Part shown: positions 12,672 to 63,270 of the stretch, in pieces | Position numbering within the stretch: the stretch's first letter is position 1 | How the letters are laid out: every line of letters starts with the position of its first letter | IMG/VR virus record: IMGVR_UViG_3300047323_000678 | Strand: one strand, 5' to 3' | Source: a virus | Lineage: Duplodnaviria > Heunggongvirae > Uroviricota > Caudoviricetes | Length of the DNA stretch: 64,000 nt | Program-made: the position numbers and the translations under genes | The notes under the pieces: model-generated | Databases searched by the model: none | What the model was told of the DNA's origin: nothing | Seen by the model: only the letters and a program-made list of their open reading frames with translations

Positions 12672-14135
12672 ACTACCCCGCCTTAAAAGACGGGGATTCC
12701 TGTTTCGTTGGAAACAGCCTTAGTCTTCTTAGAAATAATTTTCCTTGAAGATTTAGGTCTGACATTTCCTCCACAAGCATTAACCGTAGTTCCTACGGTA
12801 GTTTTTTTATATTTATGTAAGTTTAGACAAGCATTTTCATCTCTATCATGGACAGCATTACAGGCTACACAAGTCCAAGTTCTATCTGATAATTTAAGAC
12901 CATGATTGATATACTTACAACAATTACATTCTTTGGAGCTTGGATAGAATCTATCTACCTCAATAATTTCCCTATTATGCCACTGAGCTTTATAAGTTAT
13001 CATATTATTGAATTTAGACCAAGCCACAGTATGAATCGCTCTACTTAACTTACGGTTTTTCATCATATTTTTAACAGCTAAATTTTCCCTAACAATCACT
13101 TGGTTTTCGTTAATTATTTTTGTGGATAATTTATGGTAGCTATCTGTTAAGATATTTAATTTCTTTTCATGTAGCTTTGCTACTTTAATTCTTTGTTTAT
13201 TTCTATTTTTACTTCCTTTTTGTCTTCTACTCATTATTCTTTGAGCTTTTCTCAATTTTTTATCCACCGCCTTGATTAATTCAGGTAAATTAAAACCATA
13301 GAAATTATTACCATCATAAACTTTAGCTGTTGTTTTCAATCCTAAATCATAGCTAGTTTTTTGTTGAGTATTATTGCTTTGATTCTTTACTTCTTTAGCT
13401 TGAATAGATTCTTCAACTAAAAATGAAATATAATATTTACCTGAAGGTTCCTGAGAAATAGTAACTGAAGATACAGCTAAATGATTAAATTTTCTACTAA
13501 ACTTAATGTTTAAAGGTTTATTATATTTAGGTAGAAAAAACTGTTTATTTTTCAGAAAATGTTCATCAAAATGAAGAGAATTTTTACCAGTAATGGTAAA
13601 TGAATTCTTATTTAATTTCTTTTTAAATTGAGGATAACCACCAATACCTTTGAAAAATCTGTCATATGCAGTATTGAGATGCATAATAGACTGTTGCAGA
13701 GCAATAGAACTAACTTCTTTCAACCATGAATATTCAGGGTTAGATTTAAGAGTTTTAATATAATTAATTCTATCAGTAGAACTTAATAGCTTATATTCAG
13801 GATTAACAACCAATTTATCATTAGCTAAGAATTTAGATTTATAATGTTCTTCAGAATATTTAAGAGTCTGATTATAGACGAAACGAGAGCAACCAAAGGT
13901 TTTAGCCAAAAGAATAATTAAATCCTTCTGAGGATAAAACCTAAATTTATATGCTCGCTTTATAATCTTACTCATAGTTAATCAGATTATTAAAATCAAC
14001 TACATTTGTCAATCTATTAGACTGTTTGATTTTAATTTTCAACTGAATTAATCTAAAATAATTAAATATCAACCCCCATTGGGTTGGCGAGCTTGTATCA
14101 CCGCCCTGAAGGACGGTGTTTTACTCTCGTTTAGG
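12668..14135 (-). mobile_element. IS200/IS605-family element, tnpB only (IS1341-like, non-autonomous)
   Basis: On the minus strand: left end TTAT|CCTAAACGAGAGTAAAACACCGTCCTTCAGGGCGGTG hairpin, right end GGAATCCCCGTCTTTTAAGGCGGGGTAGTTCAA; no room for tnpA. Confidence 0.85.
12683..13975 (-). CDS. tnpB: RNA-guided endonuclease TnpB
   Basis: KRAYKFRFYP N-terminus, RuvC motifs YDLGLK / RENL / DRDENA, Zn finger CNCC...CVAC. Confidence 0.95.
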   Translation of the reverse strand: MSKIIKRAYKFRFYPQKDLIILLAKTFGCSRFVYNQTLKYSEEHYKSKFLANDKLVVNPEYKLLSSTDRINYIKTLKSNPEYSWLKEVSSIALQQSIMHLNTAYDRFFKGIGGYPQFKKKLNKNSFTITGKNSLHFDEHFLKNKQFFLPKYNKPLNIKFSRKFNHLAVSSVTISQEPSGKYYISFLVEESIQAKEVKNQSNNTQQKTSYDLGLKTTAKVYDGNNFYGFNLPELIKAVDKKLRKAQRIMSRRQKGSKNRNKQRIKVAKLHEKKLNILTDSYHKLSTKIINENQVIVRENLAVKNMMKNRKLSRAIHTVAWSKFNNMITYKAQWHNREIIEVDRFYPSSKECNCCKYINHGLKLSDRTWTCVACNAVHDRDENACLNLHKYKKTTVGTTVNACGGNVRPKSSRKIISKKTKAVSNETGIPVF

Positions 14136-22688: not shown

Positions 22689-22773
22689 GCCTGAGTGGTG
22701 AAATTGGTAGACACAAGAGACTTAAAATCTCTCGCTTAACGGCGTGCCGGTTCGATTCCGGCCTCAGGTACCA
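22689..22773 (+). tRNA. tRNA-Leu(UAA) copy 1
   Basis: Cloverleaf with long variable arm, AGAGA-CTTAAAA-TCTCT anticodon arm, encoded CCA. Confidence 0.95.
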
Positions 22774-22795
22774 AATTCAAATAATAGGATATAAC

Positions 22796-22990
22796 ATGCT
22801 TTGTGAATATTGTGAGATTTTTTCTAGACATCCATGCCAAAATCGCCCCGAAGCATCTCAATGCCCTAATAATAAAAATCGTGGTGAATGTATGGATTTC
22901 AAAGCAAGTGATGTAGCCCTGTGGATTCGTGCTAATACTTCAGATAAAGAATTGCTAAAAGCTGCTGCTTTGATTGAAGAAAAAATGTAA
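22796..22990 (+). CDS. Small Cys-containing hypothetical protein
   Basis: AGGA RBS; CEYC...C...C...C pattern; lies between tRNA-Leu copies. Confidence 0.55.
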   Translation: MLCEYCEIFSRHPCQNRPEASQCPNNKNRGECMDFKASDVALWIRANTSDKELLKAAALIEEKM

Positions 22991-22997
22991 AGTCTAA

Positions 22998-23082
22998 GCC
23001 TGAGTGGTGGAATAGGTAGACACAACAGACTTAAAATCTGTCGCTTAACGGCATGCCGGTTCGATTCCGGCCTCAGGTACCA
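22998..23082 (+). tRNA. tRNA-Leu(UAA) copy 2
   Basis: ACAGA-CTTAAAA-TCTGT anticodon arm, CCA end. Confidence 0.95.
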
Positions 23083-23108
23083 ATTTAAATTCAATTATTA
23101 AAAATTTT

Positions 23109-23339
23109 ATGATAGAAATGCTTTTAGAATTTTTGTTATTTGTGACAAACCGTGATAAAACCAAATGGTATACATTTAGTATATTTGATATTTGTTTATT
23201 CATGATTTCAGGTGCAAGTTATTTTGTATTGGATTTGAAAAGTAGTCCAGCAATAGGATGGATTTGTATTATTATCATGAATACTGTAGAAACATATTAC
23301 CATAATAAAAATAATAGTAAGGATGAGCAAAAGAGCTAA
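23109..23339 (+). CDS. Small membrane protein
   Basis: 76 aa, two hydrophobic segments. Confidence 0.55.
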   Translation: MIEMLLEFLLFVTNRDKTKWYTFSIFDICLFMISGASYFVLDLKSSPAIGWICIIIMNTVETYYHNKNNSKDEQKS

Positions 23340-23380
23340 TCTTAGCTTATTAGACTTGTCCTGATTTAAAAAAAGAAAAT

Positions 23381-23457
23381 GCTACTGTAGCTCAGTTGGT
23401 CAGAGCAAAGGACTCATAATCCTTCGGTCGCTGGTTCAAGTCCAGCCAGTAGCACCA
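23381..23457 (+). tRNA. tRNA with CAU anticodon (elongator Met or Ile2)
   Basis: Perfect cloverleaf, AAGGA-CTCATAA-TCCTT; G1-C72 pair and no triple G-C, so not initiator. Confidence 0.9.
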
Positions 23458-23598
23458 CCTTTTTAAACTATATTAAAATAAAATAAATTTTAAGAAATAA
23501 AAAAACTTAAAATACTCTGTACAAAACAAGCAGTAAGCAGTATAATAGCTTCATCAGTTAGCAAATGAAGCAAAGAAATAAAGTAGTTAAATTTACTT

Positions 23599-23683
23599 GC
23601 CTGAGTGGTGAAATTGGTAGACGCAACGGACTTAAAATCCGTCGCCGCAAGGCGTGCCGGTTCGATTCCGGCCTCAGGCACCA
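23599..23683 (+). tRNA. tRNA-Leu(UAA) copy 3
   Basis: ACGGA-CTTAAAA-TCCGT anticodon arm, CCA end. Confidence 0.95.
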
Positions 23684-23831
23684 AATTAAAATATATTGGA
23701 TAGCACAAGTATCCGCAGACTTGTGTGAAAACTTAAAGCGGAATAATTAAAATTATTGTAAACCAATTTATTTCAGTATATTTTAATTTGGAATTAATTA
23801 AATTCTGCACAACGATAAAATAGGTGATATA

Positions 23832-24002
23832 ATGCGAGTTATTGTAACAGCCGAAGAAATTATAGATCGTGGTGTATGGGATGAATTTTGTGAAAAACGC
23901 GGAATTAATGTTTGGGCTGTTAATGAAGGGTTGATGAATTCAGATGAAGAGTTCACCCTTTCTGAAGAAGAAGCCCAAAGTTACGGTTTTTTGAAAAAGT
24001 AA
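23832..24002 (+). CDS. Small acidic hypothetical protein (56 aa)
   Basis: AGGTG RBS; MRVIVTAEEIIDRGVWDEFCEK... Confidence 0.55.
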   Translation: MRVIVTAEEIIDRGVWDEFCEKRGINVWAVNEGLMNSDEEFTLSEEEAQSYGFLKK

Positions 24003-24009
24003 AGATTAT

Positions 24010-24087
24010 CTGTCAGTAGCTCAGCAGGATTAGAGCAACAGCCTTCTAAGCTGTGGGTCGGGGGTTCGAATCCCTCCTGACAGGCCA
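24010..24087 (+). tRNA. tRNA-Arg(UCU)
   Basis: CTGTCAG/CTGACAG acceptor, ACAGC-CTTCTAA-GCTGT anticodon arm, CCA end. Confidence 0.95.
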
Positions 24088-24110
24088 AATTAAGTAGTAA
24101 AAGTCACAAA

Positions 24111-24195
24111 GCCTGAGTGGTGGAATAGGTAGACACAACAGACTTAAAATCTGTCGCTTAACGGCGTGCCGGTTCGATTCCGGCCTCAGGTACCA
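24111..24195 (+). tRNA. tRNA-Leu(UAA) copy 4
   Basis: Nearly identical to copy 2. Confidence 0.95.
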
Positions 24196-26839: not shown

Positions 26840-27094
26840 ATGAAAATTACATTAGCAATTATTGGATTACTTTTGTCAGCTTATGCTTTTGCAGGTTCTA
26901 AACAAGAGAAAGACCCTGTTAATGAAGTAATCGATATTATCAAAAAACAAGCACCTATTTTAAAAATTGGTGAGTATATTCAAGATGAAAAAGGATGTCT
27001 TTACGAAGTTAAAAAAACACAAGATGGAACTGGTATTATGTTGTTTCCAACAATTACTACTCTTGACGGAAAAATTGTATGTAAAATTAAATAA
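26840..27094 (+). CDS. Small secreted protein
   Basis: AAGGAG RBS; signal peptide ending AYAFA. Confidence 0.65.
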   Translation: MKITLAIIGLLLSAYAFAGSKQEKDPVNEVIDIIKKQAPILKIGEYIQDEKGCLYEVKKTQDGTGIMLFPTITTLDGKIVCKIK

Positions 27095-27422
27095 TAAAGG
27101 AAAAACTTTATTTACAGGTGAATACTGGTATGAGGTTGAAGAATTTGCTAATGACAATGACATTAATATTCAATTTGAACCTAAAGATTTAGTATTTGAT
27201 GTAGATCCTACTTGTCCAGACGGTGCCTATATTTTCTTTGATATTAAATATGATGATGGTGGTCATGATAATTTAGGTAGTCACAATGTAATTAACCTAC
27301 CAGCCTATATTGATAAGTCAGAACTAATGGAATGCCATTTTGGTTATGATACATCAATGTCTAAAGAAAAAGTTATTGAGGGTTTGGAAGCTGTTGGTGC
27401 AACTTATCAAAAATTTCTTTAA
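27075..27422 (+). CDS. Hypothetical protein, paralog of 28727..29098 (start uncertain)
   Basis: QFEPKDLVFD...FDIKY...HNVINLP...MECHFGY...KEKVIEGL shared with 28727; TTG 27075 chosen by alignment. Confidence 0.65.
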   Translation: MYVKLNNKGKTLFTGEYWYEVEEFANDNDINIQFEPKDLVFDVDPTCPDGAYIFFDIKYDDGGHDNLGSHNVINLPAYIDKSELMECHFGYDTSMSKEKVIEGLEAVGATYQKFL

Positions 27423-27956: not shown

Positions 27957-28232
27957 ATGCAAAACCAAAATGTTGAGTCTGCAAATAATGTCCGCAAACT
28001 TTTCACCTCAGATCTTGATTCTGTAGAACGCAAGGCTGTTCAAGAAATTGAAAATAAACTAGGTAAAAAAATTGGTGAAGTGTCAGAGCAACAGGTTTTG
28101 GATAGTTTGAATTCGCTATTTCCTTATAATGAACTAGGTGGAAGTGAAGGAAGATACAAAGAATTCGTCGCAGATTTAAAACGAGCCTACTCTGAAGTCA
28201 AATCTGGAAAAATCCGCACTAGCAATTTTTAA
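27957..28232 (+). CDS. Hypothetical protein
   Basis: 91 aa, AAGGA RBS. Confidence 0.65.
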   Translation: MQNQNVESANNVRKLFTSDLDSVERKAVQEIENKLGKKIGEVSEQQVLDSLNSLFPYNELGGSEGRYKEFVADLKRAYSEVKSGKIRTSNF

Positions 28233-28252
28233 GTTATCAAGTTAAGAAAAAT

Positions 28253-28711
28253 ATGAAACTTAATCAATTCCAACAAGCAGAAGTAAATCATCACAATGAT
28301 GCAGAATTGCTTTGGCTTATTCAGTCAAAAATTGAAGCTTTTCAAAATGATGAGAAAAACTTCAAAGATGGGAAGTTTAATACTTTTTTATTCTGTAAAG
28401 AAGTTGGGATTGTAGTTGCAAAAGCTATTGCTGAGCGAGAAGGTTTCCATGATAAATATCATCAGTTAACTGAAAAAGAGACTGCTGATTGTTTATGGAA
28501 GAGTTACACCGAAAAATTCCCAAAATCTAATGAAGCAAGTTTCAAATCTTGGGAAGAGCTTATTTGCCCACTTTTGGATAATCTAATTTATCAATCTCTA
28601 CTGAGAACTAGGGTACCTTTACAAGAAACTAGTCTGATTGATAATTATTGGCCATTTAACCAAGAAGGTGGTTTTTGTAACCCCAACAAACTTAATATGA
28701 TAGAAGATTAA
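28253..28711 (+). CDS. Hypothetical protein
   Basis: 152-aa ORF. Confidence 0.65.
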   Translation: MKLNQFQQAEVNHHNDAELLWLIQSKIEAFQNDEKNFKDGKFNTFLFCKEVGIVVAKAIAEREGFHDKYHQLTEKETADCLWKSYTEKFPKSNEASFKSWEELICPLLDNLIYQSLLRTRVPLQETSLIDNYWPFNQEGGFCNPNKLNMIED

Positions 28712-28726
28712 TTAAAGGAAGATATA

Positions 28727-29098
28727 GTGATTAATGTAAAAATTCAGCTTAGCAATGATGTTTTTAATCTTGTAGATGATAATGGAAATATTGTATTTTC
28801 TAATGCAAATTGGGGTTTGGTTAAAGATTTTGCTTATGGCAAATTTAATATTCAATATGAGCCAAAAGATTTGATCTTTGATATAGGTGAAGATGAGGAT
28901 GAGGGCCCATATGTATATTTTGATATCAAATACGGTAGTAGTGATGGTAATCTAGATGATCACAATGTAATTAATTTACCAAGCTTTATGTATGGGGCAT
29001 TGATGGAATGCACTTTTGGTTATAAGGAATCAATGTCCAAAAAAAAGGTTATTGAAGGTTTGGTTGCAGCAGGTGCTAGTTATAAGCAAATTATTTGA
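28727..29098 (+). CDS. Hypothetical protein, paralog of 27075..27422
   Basis: AAGGA RBS, GTG start; clear alignment with the upstream paralog. Confidence 0.7.
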   Translation: MINVKIQLSNDVFNLVDDNGNIVFSNANWGLVKDFAYGKFNIQYEPKDLIFDIGEDEDEGPYVYFDIKYGSSDGNLDDHNVINLPSFMYGALMECTFGYKESMSKKKVIEGLVAAGASYKQII

Positions 29099-29175
29099 TT
29101 AAGAAAATATTGCTTGACAAATTTTTGACAACAACTTAATCTATCTACATCAATTAAATTTACTACTTATTAAAC

Positions 29176-29253
29176 ATGCGTAATTTTTCAACTACTACTA
29201 CCACAACAACAACAACTAGCTTAAAAAGCTGGGTGGTGGCATTTTATTGTTGA
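29176..29253 (+). CDS. Thr-rich leader peptide (thrL-like)
   Basis: MRNFSTTTTTTTTTSLKSWVVAFYC with nine consecutive Thr codons, directly upstream of a terminator and thrS. Confidence 0.85.
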   Translation: MRNFSTTTTTTTTTSLKSWVVAFYC

Positions 29254-29319
29254 AAAATAAATAATTAGTAAATAACAATAGAATTTTATCAAAGCCTGGC
29301 TGAAAAGTCAGGCTTTTTT
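29216..29319 (+). promoter_or_regulatory. Transcription attenuator (1:2, 2:3, 3:4 hairpins)
   Basis: 1:2 CTAGCTT/AAGCTGG; 2:3 AGCTGGGT(29227)/GCCTGGCT(29294); 3:4 GCCTGGCT-GAAA-AGTCAGGC plus T6. Confidence 0.8.
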
Positions 29320-29364
29320 GTTTTTATATTTCAATTAATCAAATTAACTTTAAAGGAAAAGAAA

Positions 29365-30570
29365 ATGGAACATAAATTAAATGAACAAGATGTATCAAAA
29401 GATATGAATGAACAAAGATATATGGATATAGCTAGAAGAATGAATCTTTTAGCTTTAGGCCCTGCTCCTGGTGCAGTGTTTTGGAAACCGAAAGGTTCTG
29501 CTCTTTATGAGAATTTAAGACAATTTATATTAGATAAACATAAGCAATATAATTACTCACAAGTAAAGTCTCCACAATTAGTAAATATGGAACTTTTCCA
29601 TAACTCAGGACATGCTGAAAAATATAGTGATTATATGTTTCAATTTAAAGAAGAAGAAATTGCGTTACGCCCTATGAGTTGTCCTAACCATATTGTTCTT
29701 TACCAATCATTTTTAAATTCATATCGAGACTTACCTGTAAAGTATTTTGAATTTGGTGAAGTCTTTAGAAATGAACCTTCAGGATCATTGCAAGTTCTTT
29801 TTAGACAAAGACAATTCTGCCAAGATGATGCTCATGTTTTTGCAAAATCTAGTGATATTCAATCTTTATTGCAAGATTATTTATCTATGAGTGAAAAAGT
29901 ATATAAAGAATTAGGATTTGAAAAAATAGAATATATGATTTCATTACGACCTGAAAAAAGGTTTGGTAGTGATGAATTATGGGATAAAGCAGAGGGTGAA
30001 TTAATTCGTGCTTGCCAAGAAAAAGGATTATCTTTTGGATTAGAGTCTGGTGGTGGTGCTTTTTATGGGCCTAAAATTGAATTAAAGGTAAGAGATAAAT
30101 TAAATCGTTTATGGCAATTAGGTGTCATTCAATTAGATTATGTTCTTCCTGAAAGATTTAATCTTCATTATATTGATGAAAATAATCAAAAGGTTCGTCC
30201 TGTTATTTTGCATCATGCTGTATTAGGCTCAATGGAAAGAATGATTGGAATTATGCTAGAAGTATTTGATGCCGATATTCCATTATTTCTTCATCCAGTT
30301 AAAGCTGCAATTGTAAGCGTATCTGATAAATCAAAAGACTATGCTATTGAAGTGCAGAAAAAATTATGTGAGCAAAATGGTTGGTCAAAATCAGAATGTA
30401 TTGTAGATGAACAAAATTCTCCATTGCCACAAAAAATTGCTAAATTATCACAAGATATGATTCCTCAAATTTATGTAGTAGGTCCTAAAGAGGCACAAAA
30501 TTATCAAGAGCAAGGAATCATGAAAGCAATGCTAAGGGAAGGTAGCAATAATAAACCCGTAGAGTTATAA
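29365..30570 (+). CDS. thrS: Threonine--tRNA ligase lacking the N-terminal TGS/editing domains
   Basis: PGAVFWKPKG, RPMSCPNH, FRNEPSGSL, QDDAH, GAFYGPKI, WQLGVIQLD, HHAVLGSMER; Zn ligands C/H/H present; 401 aa. Confidence 0.92.
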   Translation: MEHKLNEQDVSKDMNEQRYMDIARRMNLLALGPAPGAVFWKPKGSALYENLRQFILDKHKQYNYSQVKSPQLVNMELFHNSGHAEKYSDYMFQFKEEEIALRPMSCPNHIVLYQSFLNSYRDLPVKYFEFGEVFRNEPSGSLQVLFRQRQFCQDDAHVFAKSSDIQSLLQDYLSMSEKVYKELGFEKIEYMISLRPEKRFGSDELWDKAEGELIRACQEKGLSFGLESGGGAFYGPKIELKVRDKLNRLWQLGVIQLDYVLPERFNLHYIDENNQKVRPVILHHAVLGSMERMIGIMLEVFDADIPLFLHPVKAAIVSVSDKSKDYAIEVQKKLCEQNGWSKSECIVDEQNSPLPQKIAKLSQDMIPQIYVVGPKEAQNYQEQGIMKAMLREGSNNKPVEL

Positions 30571-30663
30571 TAAATAAGCTGACTGTTAGAGTGGAAAAAG
30601 CTTGTACATTTTAATAGTTAGCTTATAATATAGTTTGTTAATTAACTTCTAAAGGACAGGAAA

Positions 30664-30909
30664 ATGAACATTAAAAATACATTGAATTATCTTTTCAACT
30701 GGAAAAAGAATCCTGCATCAGTTTTTGTCTTAGCAGTTCCTTTAGTTATCATTGGATTTGGCTTAATGTTTATTATGGCAATTTTGCAAATGAAACTTCA
30801 TAGTGATCCTTGGTATCTAGTAATTTTTGCTTGTGGAATCGGATTGCTTATGCTTGGTCTGTGGCCGATTCGTAAGCCACTAATGGCAGCATTTAATAAT
30901 AAAAATTAA
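30664..30909 (+). CDS. Small two-TM membrane protein
   Basis: 81 aa, downstream of promoter 30602. Confidence 0.65.
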   Translation: MNIKNTLNYLFNWKKNPASVFVLAVPLVIIGFGLMFIMAILQMKLHSDPWYLVIFACGIGLLMLGLWPIRKPLMAAFNNKN

Positions 30910-30919
30910 GGGGTAAAAT

Positions 30920-31108
30920 ATGAAATTTAAAAATTATGCTTTGGTTGCCTTTTTCTACTTCATTTGCACTTTTATCCTTGGTCTAATGGTTTCACATTTT
31001 ATTCCAGCAGCACAGTCTATTCGATATTTTTGGATTGCTATTGGAGTAGGTGTAGGAAGGTTTTTTATTGAATGGTTTAAAGATAAATTTAGTCTTAAAA
31101 TAAAATAA
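30920..31108 (+). CDS. Small two-TM membrane protein
   Basis: 62 aa hydrophobic. Confidence 0.6.
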   Translation: MKFKNYALVAFFYFICTFILGLMVSHFIPAAQSIRYFWIAIGVGVGRFFIEWFKDKFSLKIK

Positions 31109-31183
31109 AAATGTTTTAATTATTGTACATTTAAAGAATCAAGTGTATACTAAGGTCTTTCTTACAAAACTTTAAAATCCATC

Positions 31184-31378
31184 ATGAACTTTAAAGATTG
31201 CATGATTGTTGTTGGTCTTGAAGTAATTGCTACTTTTATTATGGCATTAATTGGTTATTTTATTACTCCAACTTTGATGCCTTTATCTCTTTGCTTTCAA
31301 TTAGCTGTTGGAGTAGCTATTTTAGTATTTTTGGTTTATGGAATTAAGAAATTGCTCTTTTCTTCTAGTTGCAGTTAA
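31184..31378 (+). CDS. Small two-TM membrane protein
   Basis: 64 aa hydrophobic, downstream of promoter 31123. Confidence 0.6.
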   Translation: MNFKDCMIVVGLEVIATFIMALIGYFITPTLMPLSLCFQLAVGVAILVFLVYGIKKLLFSSSCS

Positions 31379-31414
31379 GTTAAGAAAATAAAAATTTAAT
31401 AATAAGGATAGAAA

Positions 31415-31591
31415 ATGAAACCAGTCGGAAAAGTTATTCAAGAAAAACCAATTATGGTTCATGTGACAAAAAATGCTCGCCCTGTTCATGAGTCAGTTGC
31501 CAAACAATATGTTGAAAAAACATATCCAGAAGTGCTTTCTTGGAAATTCACAAAAACAGATCATTCTGTATTAGCTGAAGAAAATATTTAA
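31415..31591 (+). CDS. Small hypothetical protein (58 aa)
   Basis: AAGGA RBS; MKPVGKVIQEKPIMVHVTKNARP... Confidence 0.55.
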   Translation: MKPVGKVIQEKPIMVHVTKNARPVHESVAKQYVEKTYPEVLSWKFTKTDHSVLAEENI

Positions 31592-31670
31592 AAAATACTT
31601 GTACTTTTAAATATTTTTAGATATAATTGATTTTCATTTAGCAGTAAAAGAAATAAATTCGTTATTTTAA

Positions 31671-31730
31671 TTGGACTTAAGCATATTTTATCCAGCAAGT
31701 TGGGTGCTTAAGTGAAATAAACAACTGCTG
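31671..31730 (+). ncRNA. 60-nt repeated structured RNA motif, copy B
   Basis: Same length and core as copies A and C; sits just downstream of promoter 31599. Confidence 0.7.
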
Positions 31731-31750
31731 CTTTCTAATTCTACTTTTCA

Positions 31751-31967
31751 CAAAACGGCCTATTAGCGTTTTCCAGGTTGCCGCGACGACTGGAAATTGT
31801 GAAAATGCAAGACATGGCTTGGTGATTGTTCATGTCTAAGATAGCTCAAATCACAACTGACAAAACAGGCTACAAGCGTTCTCCAAGTTCCTGCGACGAT
31901 TGGAGATTGTCGGTACAAGACATGGCTTGGTTGTTGAACATGTCTCAGATAGCTCAAACAACCTGCA
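31751..31967 (+). ncRNA. Tandem pair of about 110-nt pseudoknotted RNAs
   Basis: Units start at 31751 and 31861; compensatory changes in a 7-bp stem and in a loop-tail pseudoknot. Confidence 0.75.
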
Positions 31968-31991
31968 TTATTTTTTAATTTGAAGGAAAAT

Positions 31992-32198
31992 ATGCAAATT
32001 ATTGTTCATCTCACCGAAGAAGAATTAAATAATATTTCACTCGATCATTCGGCTTTAACAAAAATTATTCTAAAAAAAGTTGGTTCTATTACGAAAAATC
32101 AAAAAAGAATTTTTGATCAACTAGAAATTGAACTAGAATTAAAAGTCGACAATATATCCCAAGCCTATATTCAAAAAAAGAATTCTTCAAAAGAATAA
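31992..32198 (+). CDS. Small hypothetical protein
   Basis: AAGGA RBS before ATG 31992. Confidence 0.55.
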   Translation: MQIIVHLTEEELNNISLDHSALTKIILKKVGSITKNQKRIFDQLEIELELKVDNISQAYIQKKNSSKE

Positions 32199-33859: not shown

Positions 33860-33922
33860 TTGAACTATTGCTTTATTTTAACTTTTAACTTATATTATCT
33901 GCATAATTTATATATTCAAATA

Positions 33923-35605
33923 ATGCCGAATAAGTCTAGCAATAATAATTTAGTTGATGAGAAGAAAAAGTTAAAAACTTTTTCTATTCATGAAACTGAT
34001 TTATCTATGGTTAAATTTATCAAAAATTATTTATTTAAATATAAACATTTAGAGAATATTCTTAATTTATTGCTCAGAGAACAGTTTGAACTTAATCAAT
34101 CTTTATCTGATTATGCTTTGACCGAAGGTAAGAAAGCCTTTAGTTTATTATTTAATGAAAAAGCTATGAAAGCCGTTTTGGTAGGCAATGCTGGTGGCAT
34201 TGCTACCAAAGAGAATATTTCTTTTATCAATAACTATTTCCAAAACAATCATTTATTTATTCAGGCTAAAATAGTATCTAAACCATTAAATGATAAAAAT
34301 ATTTCTATGGTTGTTCGTAGAATCAAAAAAGATTGGTCTAATTATTTTTCTGCTTTAACTCAATATAAATCTAATCCCTCTACTTTTAAAGGTAAGCCTA
34401 GTTATCCTAAATCTAAAAAACTATCTAAAGTTTTTAATTATTCTTTACCTTTAGAAAAAGATAAATGGTCTTTAAAAAGAAAGAAACAAAATCTTTTAGG
34501 CATCAATCTAGGCAAAAAAATGTTTGATGTTTATATTGGTAAAACTGAATATTTCAAAGATAAATTAGTAAATAATGTTACCGTGAGCTACTCTCATGGT
34601 CATATTTATTATAATTTTACTTATTCTAGTGAAAATCAAGGTTTACCTAATAAAGATAAAGAGTTTATTTTACCCAAAGATAAAGTAAGAAAAGAAGCTG
34701 GTGGTGATGTAGGTTTGAATAATTTACTATCTTTATTCATTAATGATGAAACTACACAATCATTAATTTTTTCAGGCAAAGAAGTCATTAGTTATAACTG
34801 CAATTTTAATAAAAGATTAGCCGAAATTAACACATTGATTTCTTATGAAGTTAAGACTTATAAAACTATTTCTGATAAAAATGGAGTTATTAGACAAGTT
34901 CCTGAATCTTACACAAATAAAGGTAAGAGATTAATTAAAACAAAAAGTCAATTATTTGAGAGAAGAAGGCTATTCTTTTATGATTACATGAATAAATTAA
35001 GCAAAAAGGTTGTTGAATACTTATCAAATAATAATGTAATAGATTTAGTTTTATCTAAGAATTTAAGCTTTACCAAGAATGATGGTAGTATAGAAATGCA
35101 GAAGAAAACAAAGCAGAAATTTTACCAAATACCATTTGGTAATATGTTGAATTTAATTTCAAGTAGAGCAGAAGAAAAATCAATCAATGTGGTATGGATA
35201 GATGAAGCATATACAAGTAAAACAAGCAGTATTAGTGCAGAAGTAGTAGAAGTGCAGAAATTAGCATCAATAGATAGAAATAAAATAGTTCCTACAGATT
35301 TAAATGGTAATCGTGGAGCGAAGAAAAAAGGTATTTTAAATAATAAATTAGGAAGAGGTTTATTCAAAGATAGTGTGATAAACAAGGTAATAAATGCTGA
35401 TATAAATGCAGCATGCAATCATATTAAAGTAGCATTTAAATATGTTGATAAAAATTACCTATCAAAGTATAGCTTGCATAAATGGTGTAATCCAATAAAG
35501 ATAAAAAGTAATCACGAGTTTGATATTTTACTGAAGAATTTTAGTAAAAAACAAATAGTAGATATACATTTAGGTAAGGAAATTTACCTGAAATCCGTAG
35601 TATAA
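33923..35605 (+). CDS. tnpB: IS607-associated TnpB-like RuvC protein
   Basis: GGDVGLNN, LVLSKN, QIPF, DEAYTSKTS, NADINAACN; follows the IS607 tnpA remnant; no Cys Zn finger. Confidence 0.85.
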   Translation: MPNKSSNNNLVDEKKKLKTFSIHETDLSMVKFIKNYLFKYKHLENILNLLLREQFELNQSLSDYALTEGKKAFSLLFNEKAMKAVLVGNAGGIATKENISFINNYFQNNHLFIQAKIVSKPLNDKNISMVVRRIKKDWSNYFSALTQYKSNPSTFKGKPSYPKSKKLSKVFNYSLPLEKDKWSLKRKKQNLLGINLGKKMFDVYIGKTEYFKDKLVNNVTVSYSHGHIYYNFTYSSENQGLPNKDKEFILPKDKVRKEAGGDVGLNNLLSLFINDETTQSLIFSGKEVISYNCNFNKRLAEINTLISYEVKTYKTISDKNGVIRQVPESYTNKGKRLIKTKSQLFERRRLFFYDYMNKLSKKVVEYLSNNNVIDLVLSKNLSFTKNDGSIEMQKKTKQKFYQIPFGNMLNLISSRAEEKSINVVWIDEAYTSKTSSISAEVVEVQKLASIDRNKIVPTDLNGNRGAKKKGILNNKLGRGLFKDSVINKVINADINAACNHIKVAFKYVDKNYLSKYSLHKWCNPIKIKSNHEFDILLKNFSKKQIVDIHLGKEIYLKSVV

Positions 35606-36003: not shown

Positions 36004-36080
<77 letters not shown>

Positions 36081-36088
36081 TAGAATAA

Positions 36089-36148
36089 TTGGACTTAAGT
36101 GATTTTTAGCCAGCAAGTTGGGCGCTTAGGTAAAATAAACAACTGCTG
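36089..36148 (+). ncRNA. 60-nt repeated structured RNA motif, copy C
   Basis: Between tRNA-Pro and the CUA tRNA; compensatory A-T to G-C change in the main stem. Confidence 0.7.
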
Positions 36149-36152
36149 TTAT

Positions 36153-36226
36153 GCTCTGTTGTCCGATTGGTTAGGAAGCGGCTTCTAAACCCGCCTAGAA
36201 CGGTTCGATTCCGTTACAGAGTACCA
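36153..36226 (+). tRNA. Probable amber suppressor tRNA (CUA anticodon)
   Basis: GCGGC-TTCTAAA-CCCGC anticodon arm centred on CTA (36185-36187), C31.C39 mismatch; normal T-arm and CCA. Confidence 0.7.
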
Positions 36227-40291: not shown

Positions 40292-40888
40292 TTGAAATCC
40301 ATTTTAAATAACAATATAGCGCATTATCCCAACATAGATTGGCGACTTATTGCTTTCGCACAGAATTATTATGAATCATTGGGATATCAATATGTAGAAA
40401 CTCCTTGGTTAATTCCTACTTATTATACGGAAAAGACTAAACCCTTCCAAGATAAATCTTTTGTATTAGACTCTGATTTATTTAAGAATCAAAATAATGA
40501 ATTGGTGGGTTCAGCAGAACAAGGTTTTTTATATTTAATTGATAATAATCAGCTTCAACCTGGAAAATATTTTTCAATTTCTCCATGTTTCAGAACAGAG
40601 AATTATGATTCATTACATCAAGCTTGGTTCATGAAATTAGAAATAATTGACTTTCAAAATGCTAATACAAATTCTTTGAATGATATGATAGAACATGCAT
40701 TTAATTTTTTCAGAAATCATACTAAAGGTCAGTTGGAAATAGTTAATTTACCAGATAAAAGCTATGACATTAATTTGAATGGTATAGAAGTCGGTTCATA
40801 TGGAATAAGAAAAATCAATGATATTGATTATATTTATGGAACAGGTCTAGCTCTGCCAAGATTTTCTACGGCTAATAATATGAAATAA
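40292..40888 (+). CDS. Stand-alone class II aaRS-like catalytic domain
   Basis: Motif 1 YVETPWL, motif 2 PCFRTE...HQAWFMKLE, motif 3 GTGLALPR; 198 aa, no anticodon-binding domain; AGGAG RBS. Confidence 0.75.
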   Translation: MKSILNNNIAHYPNIDWRLIAFAQNYYESLGYQYVETPWLIPTYYTEKTKPFQDKSFVLDSDLFKNQNNELVGSAEQGFLYLIDNNQLQPGKYFSISPCFRTENYDSLHQAWFMKLEIIDFQNANTNSLNDMIEHAFNFFRNHTKGQLEIVNLPDKSYDINLNGIEVGSYGIRKINDIDYIYGTGLALPRFSTANNMK

Positions 40889-62712: not shown

Positions 62713-63270
62713 TTAATAAGATTCTACAGCACTAAAATCTAGTCCTTTTAAATTATTGTTTTCAACAATTTCTTTAAACTCTTCACTAACATAAACTTTC
62801 AAAGGGTCATCTGACAACACAAATAAAGGATCATTTTTTAAAGCATCGGAATTAAAAATGGTTTTATACATGATTTTTTCCTTTTCTACTTTTTTCCATT
62901 TAGATTTATTTAAATTAATAACGGAAGAATTATAGATATTTTTATTAGGATAAAAGCCATAAAACTTTTTTCTTATACTCTCTGTTTCAATAGGAATAAT
63001 TTGTCCTGTTTTATCAAGAATATCTTTTAAAACTTCTACTGCTCTTTCGCTTAAAATAATTAATGAACTCTCAATGCCGATATCCATTTGAAAGTTTTTC
63101 TTACCTTCATCAGATTTATATAATTTAAATTTAACAGGTTGATAATCGTCTAAATCAATTGTTTGCCAACCCCAATATTTTTTAATAAATACATTGTCTA
63201 AATTGTCATAAATTTCATAAAAGACAGAATAGTTTTTAGAATCTTCTTTTAACTCATATATATTACTCAT
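62713..63270 (-). CDS. Imm11/DUF1629-like immunity protein
   Basis: IILSERAVEVLKDIL...GQIIPIE and VYVSEEFKEIVENNNLKGLDF motifs; ATGA overlap with the upstream gene. Confidence 0.55.
   Translation of the reverse strand: MSNIYELKEDSKNYSVFYEIYDNLDNVFIKKYWGWQTIDLDDYQPVKFKLYKSDEGKKNFQMDIGIESSLIILSERAVEVLKDILDKTGQIIPIETESIRKKFYGFYPNKNIYNSSVINLNKSKWKKVEKEKIMYKTIFNSDALKNDPLFVLSDDPLKVYVSEEFKEIVENNNLKGLDFSAVESY

Follow-up and report, generated by a model that had tools for sequence, protein, structure and literature searches.

Leader-peptide attenuation is a known form of control, and in Escherichia coli it acts before an aminoacyl-tRNA synthetase gene, as in pheM-pheST. In Bacillus subtilis, a gene for a full-length threonyl-tRNA synthetase (ThrRS), thrZ, is under the control of T-box elements, to which uncharged tRNA binds directly. 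thrZ has been summarized as a silent second ThrRS gene that is induced by threonine (Thr) starvation or by low ThrS (PMC3315439). Attenuators have been described before trpS and leuS of Streptomyces (PMC1262725), and the leader pairs thrL-thrS, alaL-alaS and leuL-leuS have been described in S. lividans (PMC8079986). A natural "minimalist" ThrRS that lacks the editing domain is represented by yeast mitochondrial MST1 (PMC4267643). Here, we analyzed positions 29176 to 30570 of a stretch of 64,000 nucleotides (the window) from the IMG/VR virus record IMGVR_UViG_3300047323_000678, where a Thr-rich leader precedes a short ThrRS gene (thrS). We consider it probable that this locus holds a classical ribosome-mediated leader-peptide transcription attenuator, which responds to the level of charged tRNA-Thr and governs an auxiliary, "emergency" ThrRS. 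Most likely, the nine-Thr leader and a switchable terminator turn on a shortened ThrRS that lacks proofreading.

The leader region contains the following features, the first two of which agree with the initial annotation of this DNA, where a leader peptide with nine consecutive Thr codons had been proposed.

29176-29253, + strand: leader-peptide open reading frame (ORF) of 25 codons, MRNFS-T9-SLKSWVVAFYC, with stop codon TGA
29191-29217, + strand: sensing codons, nine Thr codons in series (ACT four times, ACC once, ACA four times)
29114-29142, + strand: putative sigma-70-type promoter, with TTGACA at 29114-29119, a 17-nucleotide (nt) spacer and TAATCT at 29137-29142
29353-29357, + strand: Shine-Dalgarno sequence of thrS, AAGGA, 7 nt 5' of the thrS ATG

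The leader ORF translates as MRNFSTTTTTTTTTSLKSWVVAFYC. Its Thr-codon run, which also makes up most of segment 1 of the folds described below, is the only run of at least seven ACN triplets in the 64-kb window, and such runs were absent from 100 shuffles. Transcription is predicted to start near 29149, about 25 nt 5' of the leader ATG, and the -35 box and the spacing of the putative promoter are kept in the close relatives L001, L004 and L006 (L numbers denote the loci of relatives). At the position of the thrS Shine-Dalgarno sequence, the relatives conserve GGAG or AGGA.

Next, we looked into the folds available to the leader transcript. The region 29140-29364 folded far more stably than its shuffles (-46.1 versus -28.7 kcal/mol, z = -4.6), and three alternative helices were found.

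29183-29258, + strand: helix 1:2 (anti-antiterminator), in which 29183-29204 pairs with 29233-29258, with a tip hairpin at 29216-29232
29227-29301, + strand: helix 2:3 (antiterminator), in which 29227-29252 pairs with 29273-29301 (-22 kcal/mol)
29291-29326, + strand: helix 3:4, the intrinsic terminator, AAAGCCUGGCU-GAAA-AGUCAGGCUUU and then a U-run (-16.3 kcal/mol)

In the absence of a ribosome, helix 1:2 is the fold of minimum energy; the first Thr codons then pair with the G/U-rich stretch 29233-29258, and the terminator forms. When the transcript was cut just before segment 4 and a ribosome was placed on Thr codons 1 to 7, helix 2:3 formed as one long hairpin, which buries 29294-29301 of the terminator 5' arm. 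The same helix was not formed in the cut transcript when there was no ribosome or when the ribosome stood at the leader stop codon. The terminator stem (29291-29316) has 11 bp and a GAAA loop, is followed by TTTTTTGTTTTT, and is the sole terminator-like site in 28600-31200. The ribosome-constrained folds thus reproduced what the initial annotation had described, namely, mutually exclusive 1:2, 2:3 and 3:4 helices placed such that a stalled ribosome frees segment 2.

Under this model, a ribosome supplied with plentiful Thr-tRNA(Thr) would run through segment 2 to the leader stop codon and leave segment 3 free. If the leader were not translated, segment 1, with its ACN codons, would pair with the G/U-rich segment 2, and segment 3 would again be free. 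With segment 3 free, the terminator would form, and transcription would end before thrS. If, instead, Thr-tRNA(Thr) is in short supply, the ribosome would stall early in the nine-codon Thr run and expose segment 2, which would pair with segment 3; the terminator would then not form, and thrS would be transcribed. The product, a Thr-free ThrRS consisting of the catalytic and anticodon-binding parts, could be made without Thr-tRNA(Thr) and would restart charging. Read-through would in this way respond to the charging of tRNA-Thr, and routine work would be left to a second, editing-competent ThrRS, either the cell's own or the host's.

An extra long-range helix was also predicted in the leader transcript, between 29158-29171, in the 5' untranslated region before the leader ATG, and 29260-29273, 3' of the leader stop. 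Helix 1:2 lies inside it, and leader translation might be restrained until the enclosing helix is opened. The relative L006 has an uncompensated mismatch in this helix.

We then compared about 45 loci of the truncated ThrRS family, located on contigs of 21 to 67% G+C. A short ORF with 4 to 10 consecutive Thr codons lies just 5' of the truncated thrS in all examined loci except L125. The relatives' leaders use all four synonymous Thr codons, with a choice that tracks genomic G+C content, and have an in-frame stop codon soon after segment 2. In 36 of 41 loci, the search detected a strong intrinsic terminator, in most cases 12 to 40 nt after the leader stop. Across 15 aligned leaders, 96.7% of the terminator cells were paired, with compensatory changes in 7 of 10 pairs, a result reached by 0 of 500 shuffles. 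RNAalifold, run on six close relatives, detected five compensatory pairs in the terminator and one in the inner antiterminator stem.

Segment 2 is similarly constrained in its position and pairing. In 35 of 36 loci, it begins 1 to 14 nt from the end of the Thr run (29 nt in L126), and it is complementary to the 5' arm of its own terminator, with GCUGGG/CCCAGC, GGCGGG/CCCGCC and CUAGG/CCUAG among the examples. This complementarity averaged -15.3 kcal/mol, versus -9.7 kcal/mol for shuffles (z = -2.6), with a P value of 0.05 or less in 25 of 36 loci. The duplex between the Thr-codon region and segment 2 (1:2) likewise stood out from shuffles (mean z = -2.6; P value of 0.05 or less in 26 of 35 loci). 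The two pairings, 1:2 and 2:3, overlap in 29 of 35 loci, where they compete for the same nucleotides. When cognate and noncognate pairings of segment 2 with terminator arms were compared, the difference was clear in 17 of 18 high-G+C loci and in 9 of 17 low-G+C loci, the contrast being unclear in the latter because many arms share CCCAGC. The outer antiterminator stem paired far above slid-register controls. Across the family, the support for the antiterminator is energetic and positional rather than covariational. The distant carriers have only the leader and thrS in common with the window, and the two therefore behave as one module that travels together.

These data bear on the alternative that the ACN run is an RNA element only, one bound by ThrRS or some other protein or simply part of a hairpin, with the ORF untranslated or the protein serving a nontranslational role. 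The Thr codons do join helix 1:2, as such an element would, and the leader is without an obvious Shine-Dalgarno sequence. However, 38 of 40 loci have an ATG in the Thr frame no more than 12 codons upstream, versus 1 and 0 loci for the other two frames, and the in-frame stop soon after segment 2 and the synonymous codon choice described above also speak for a translated ORF. Nor did the leader match a T-box or any other Rfam family: the Rfam scan returned only subthreshold, chance-level matches, the Rfam Thr leader (RF00506) scored 17.1 bits against a threshold of 55, which gives neither membership nor a sequence or structure match, and the T-box covariance model had no match in 28900-29500 at E values up to 10. 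On the side of the protein, no catalytic residue is lost, and the anticodon-binding domain is intact. We regard an RNA-only role as very improbable.

Other observations weigh against a translated, ribosome-controlled attenuator, and they concern both the signals and the folds. The putative -10 box, TAATCT, is weak, and because it matches only 3 of the 6 consensus positions, the promoter was not called by the promoter scan; the leader ORF, as noted, lacks a clear Shine-Dalgarno sequence. At equilibrium, with the full leader and with ribosome masks, the terminator forms whatever is masked. Since the terminator is stable and local and wins at equilibrium, the switch decision must be kinetic and cotranscriptional, and only folds cut before segment 4 are informative. 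The column covariation of the outer antiterminator stem was not significant (85.6% paired versus 83.2% for shuffles, with 54 of 500 shuffles reaching the value). A crude automated three-state folding of 36 loci yielded a clean version of the expected pattern for only some of them: in the Thr-stall state, pairing of the 5' arm was 0.73, versus 0.51 for shuffles, and many loci gave ambiguous results for the states with no ribosome and with a ribosome at the stop codon. Finally, the evidence for the attenuator-ThrRS module is computational throughout. Taken with the conservation in about 40 relatives, the folding nevertheless supports well the proposal of the initial annotation that a Thr attenuator precedes an editing-less ThrRS and induces it as charging falls.

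The gene downstream of the attenuator encodes a two-domain enzyme.

29365-30570, + strand: N-terminally truncated threonyl-tRNA synthetase of 401 amino acids (aa), with class II catalytic and anticodon-binding domains

Pfam models detected the class II core and HGTP_anticodon (residues 313 to 379). The TIGR00418 thrS model aligned over positions 172 to 536 of 565 and scored 376.3 bits, a value that falls just short of its cutoff of 383.65 owing to the 171 model positions absent from the start. Among relatives of solved structure, the best are bacterial ThrRS, one of them an engineered E. coli fragment (242-642) that likewise has 401 residues. Alignment with the E. coli enzyme showed that the zinc ligands are kept (C106, H157 and H283, corresponding to E. 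coli C334, H385 and H511), as are the active-site and motif residues D155 (D383), Y234 (Y462) and K237 (K465). The motif 3 arginine is kept as R292, which we take to be R520 in E. coli numbering, and the residues of motifs 2 and 3 are intact. An AlphaFold2 model had a complete two-domain fold with a predicted local distance difference test (pLDDT) score of 85.6, and its C-terminal anticodon-binding domain was a complete alpha/beta domain with pLDDT above 90. The model matched E. coli ThrRS 242-642 with a template modeling (TM) score of 0.86 over about 390 columns and yeast mitochondrial MST1 with a TM score of 0.86.

Only a few codons separate the opening of the thrS ORF from the catalytic domain. 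A profile built from canonical N termini found no TGS or editing (tRNA_SAD) domain in the six frames of the window or in the flanks of relatives, while held-out positive controls scored 1e-127 or better. The truncation is therefore real and is not the product of a split gene nearby. Here too the initial annotation stood, since it had described a ThrRS that keeps its catalytic and zinc residues and lacks the editing domains. The enzyme should charge tRNA-Thr without posttransfer editing of Ser-tRNA(Thr).

The relatives of this enzyme are many, 380 to 420 aa long and 45 to 91% identical to it, while the identity of full-length ThrRS (about 640 aa) does not exceed about 44%. The truncated proteins formed one clan on a long branch in a maximum-likelihood tree, apart from canonical ThrRS (support 100/100).

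The composition of the enzyme sets it apart as well. Its 401 aa include no Thr at all, while the window's other long ORFs average 4.0%. Among the 120 best family members, 66 have no Thr and 42 have one; the same region in 129 canonical ThrRS contains 3.8% Thr and never fewer than 8 residues. Serine makes up 7.6% of the truncated family, versus 4.3% of canonical ThrRS, and Thr has been removed even at positions conserved in all canonical ThrRS. Two further carriers that we checked have 0 Thr each, with leaders of 9 or 6 Thr codons. Since the ThrRS contains no Thr, it should be translatable when Thr-tRNA(Thr) is unavailable and could restart charging. A Thr-free product behind a Thr-stall switch fits an enzyme made when Thr-tRNA(Thr) is essentially absent, and the lack of any Thr strengthens the core of the initial proposal. 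A low bias for the cognate amino acid has been published for amino acid biosynthetic enzymes (PMC4209129); our literature search found no report of cognate-amino-acid avoidance for any ThrRS.

The same switch could serve an inhibitor-insensitive ThrRS, which would give self-resistance or protection against borrelidin- or obafluorin-like compounds and would be induced by the attenuator when the housekeeping enzyme is blocked. The indolmycin-resistant TrpRS of Streptomyces is a parallel, and an attenuator of this kind would answer any block in charging, inhibitors included. Duplicate resistant synthetase genes are known, such as that for ObaO (PMC11252418, PMC9437257). Resistance to obafluorin and borrelidin involves E. 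coli residues G463 and L489, where ObaO has Ser and Met (PMC11252418). In the window's enzyme, however, the corresponding G235 and L261 are unchanged from E. coli, without ObaO-type G463S and L489M, and across the family G235 is invariant and L261 nearly so. Furthermore, no biosynthetic cluster was seen beside the gene, either in the window or in the sampled relatives, and resistance alone would leave the lack of Thr unexplained. We therefore consider a resistance enzyme quite improbable and retain the emergency ThrRS as the preferred reading.

The genomic setting of the module was then examined. The window consists mostly of ORFans, with ankyrin, DUF285, DnaJ, FliL, YaaA, nucleoside hydrolase and two transposase-like genes and eight tRNA genes. 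The initial annotation had placed the module on a mobile replicon, and this part of it was not upheld: no plasmid or phage hallmark was found in the window, FliL, YaaA and DnaJ are bacterial-type genes, and the contigs that carry the closest relatives are 0.6 to 2.2 Mb long. A mobile replicon is thus no more likely than a chromosomal accessory region.

Megablast of 28000-32000 against phage and plasmid collections gave no match. A tblastn search of plasmids and phages with the enzyme gave no family member, only canonical-type ThrRS at 43% identity or less, and a scan of GTDB genomes likewise gave only canonical ThrRS, at 44% identity or less. Of the 400 Gammaproteobacteria and 401 Alphaproteobacteria sampled, those searched yielded no family member. 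One distant family member is carried by a 437-kb virus record of IMG/VR, which CheckV rates as 98% complete. When this record was searched whole, the truncated gene was its only ThrRS, and there it must therefore act beside a host enzyme. The Terminase_6N and HK97 capsid Pfam models had no match on the 437-kb record, whose viral nature is given by IMG/VR and CheckV only.

The plasmid search also returned an unrelated pattern. Klebsiella accounted for 569 of the 732 plasmid records with matches to the ThrRS query, all below 60% identity, and among the matches listed, those on Klebsiella plasmids were annotated thrS with about 40% identity. These matches may reflect a thrS duplicate that is widespread on plasmids and has no relation to the truncated family.

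The distribution bears on whether the truncated enzyme is in fact the only, housekeeping ThrRS of its organism, in which case the attenuator would be a homeostatic feedback device, as the pheM leader is for pheST in E. coli. No full-length thrS or editing domain is present in the 64-kb window or in the flanks of relatives, and the close relatives on contigs of up to 2.2 Mb could represent whole small chromosomes. Natural editing-less ThrRS, moreover, do act as sole enzymes, yeast mitochondrial MST1 being an example (PMC4267643). On the other hand, the near-total purge of Thr is hard to explain for an enzyme that is made constitutively. The module also has ORFan neighbors in contexts that are unrelated to one another, at least one virus-classed record carries it, and the roughly 800 sampled proteobacterial genomes yielded only the canonical type of thrS. 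A sole enzyme thus appears unlikely to us, and an auxiliary ThrRS induced on demand remains the better account.

It is possible, if rather doubtful, that the auxiliary ThrRS and its attenuator form a portable "translation rescue" cassette of huge phages or giant mobile elements of uncultured bacteria. Such a cassette would fire only when the charging of host tRNA-Thr collapses in infection or stress, for instance, through host shutoff, starvation or a ThrRS-blocking defense, and would be made without any charged tRNA-Thr.

Other features of the window and of related loci were recorded alongside the module. Just 5' of the leader lie two small paralogous ORFs (26967-27422 and 28727-29098, + strand) with a long C-terminal block in common (…EPKDL.FD…FDIKY…HNVINLP…MEC.FGY…SMSK.KVIEGL…), and copies of them also occur 5' of thrS in L001 to L005; the one that was scanned with Pfam (28727-29095) matched no family. 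One tRNA cluster (22689-24195) contains four tRNA-Leu(UAA) genes, tRNA-Met and tRNA-Arg(UCU), and in the other (36004-36226), tRNA-Pro(UGG) adjoins an amber-reading tRNA with a CUA anticodon, called "Pyl" by ARAGORN. No tRNA-Thr was found in the 64-kb window. The two transposase-like ORFs, 12683-13975 (- strand) and 33860-35605 (+ strand), match PHROG 506 (E = 1e-110 and 2e-17, respectively) and flank a region with tRNA clusters and thrS.

A 198-aa ORF at 40292-40888 (+ strand) matches only the class II core of the Asp/Lys/Asn type (Pfam tRNA-synt_2, E = 1e-10). It is without an anticodon-binding domain, has no leader ORF or terminator before it and may be a minimal synthetase-like ligase or a remnant. 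The ORF at 62713-63270 (- strand) gave a weak match to the Imm11 immunity protein (E = 2e-5) and adjoins an unannotated ORF of 208 aa, with which it may form a toxin-immunity pair. In the distant carriers L107 (6742-8628, - strand) and L179 (10014-11102, - strand), an NAD-dependent DNA ligase gene lies a few kilobases from the truncated thrS, and most of the other neighbors there are ORFans.

Leader-peptide attenuation itself is known; here it is coupled to editing-less ThrRS of a separate and widespread family, which seems not to have been described before and has been nearly purged of Thr. Our literature search found no paper on the combination of a long Thr leader, an editing-less ThrRS and near-zero Thr content. 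If confirmed, this would be an enzyme that is both induced by the lack of charged tRNA-Thr and makeable in that absence. It also poses a question of fidelity, in that Ser-tRNA(Thr) would go unedited exactly when the ratio of Ser to Thr is at its worst. The leader would add an uncatalogued class of cis-regulatory RNA that is easy to annotate, and the module may illustrate a way in which translation is sustained by giant phages or by elements of uncultured bacteria.

Compared with described systems, the window's leader is closest in design to the E. coli thr operon leader thrL (RF00506) and to trpL, hisL and pheL, with which it shares a short ORF, three mutually exclusive helices, an intrinsic terminator and the principle that ribosome position decides read-through. 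With thrL, it further shares the run of Thr codons, but it controls a tRNA synthetase rather than threonine biosynthesis and has no Ile codons. Unlike in trpL-type attenuators, the leader stop codon lies after segment 2 and not before it, and an unstalled ribosome therefore crosses segment 2 on its way to the stop.

The synthetase attenuators of E. coli (pheM-pheST), Streptomyces and S. lividans resemble this locus in that the synthetase of the sensed amino acid is under leader-peptide attenuation. The S. lividans thrL, however, has two Thr codons and no clear terminator (PMC8079986), whereas the window's leader has nine codons and a textbook terminator, and the target here belongs to a truncated, Thr-free paralogue family. 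In its architecture of two domains and in its approximate length, the enzyme resembles the engineered E. coli deltaN-ThrRS (242-642; PDB 1evk, 4hwo and others). It is about 36 to 40% identical to deltaN-ThrRS and MST1 and differs from both in belonging to a natural family of bacterial type that is nearly devoid of Thr and has an attenuator of its own. The lack of Thr follows the principle that proteins needed in amino acid starvation avoid that amino acid (PMC4209129), although the published bias is statistical and concerns biosynthetic pathways, whereas here a near-complete purge (0 of 401 residues) is seen in a tRNA synthetase. Finally, B. subtilis thrZ is alike in being a spare ThrRS gene that is switched on when the charging of tRNA-Thr falls; at the window's locus, in contrast, the sensor would be the translating ribosome, and the enzyme is one without editing and without threonine.

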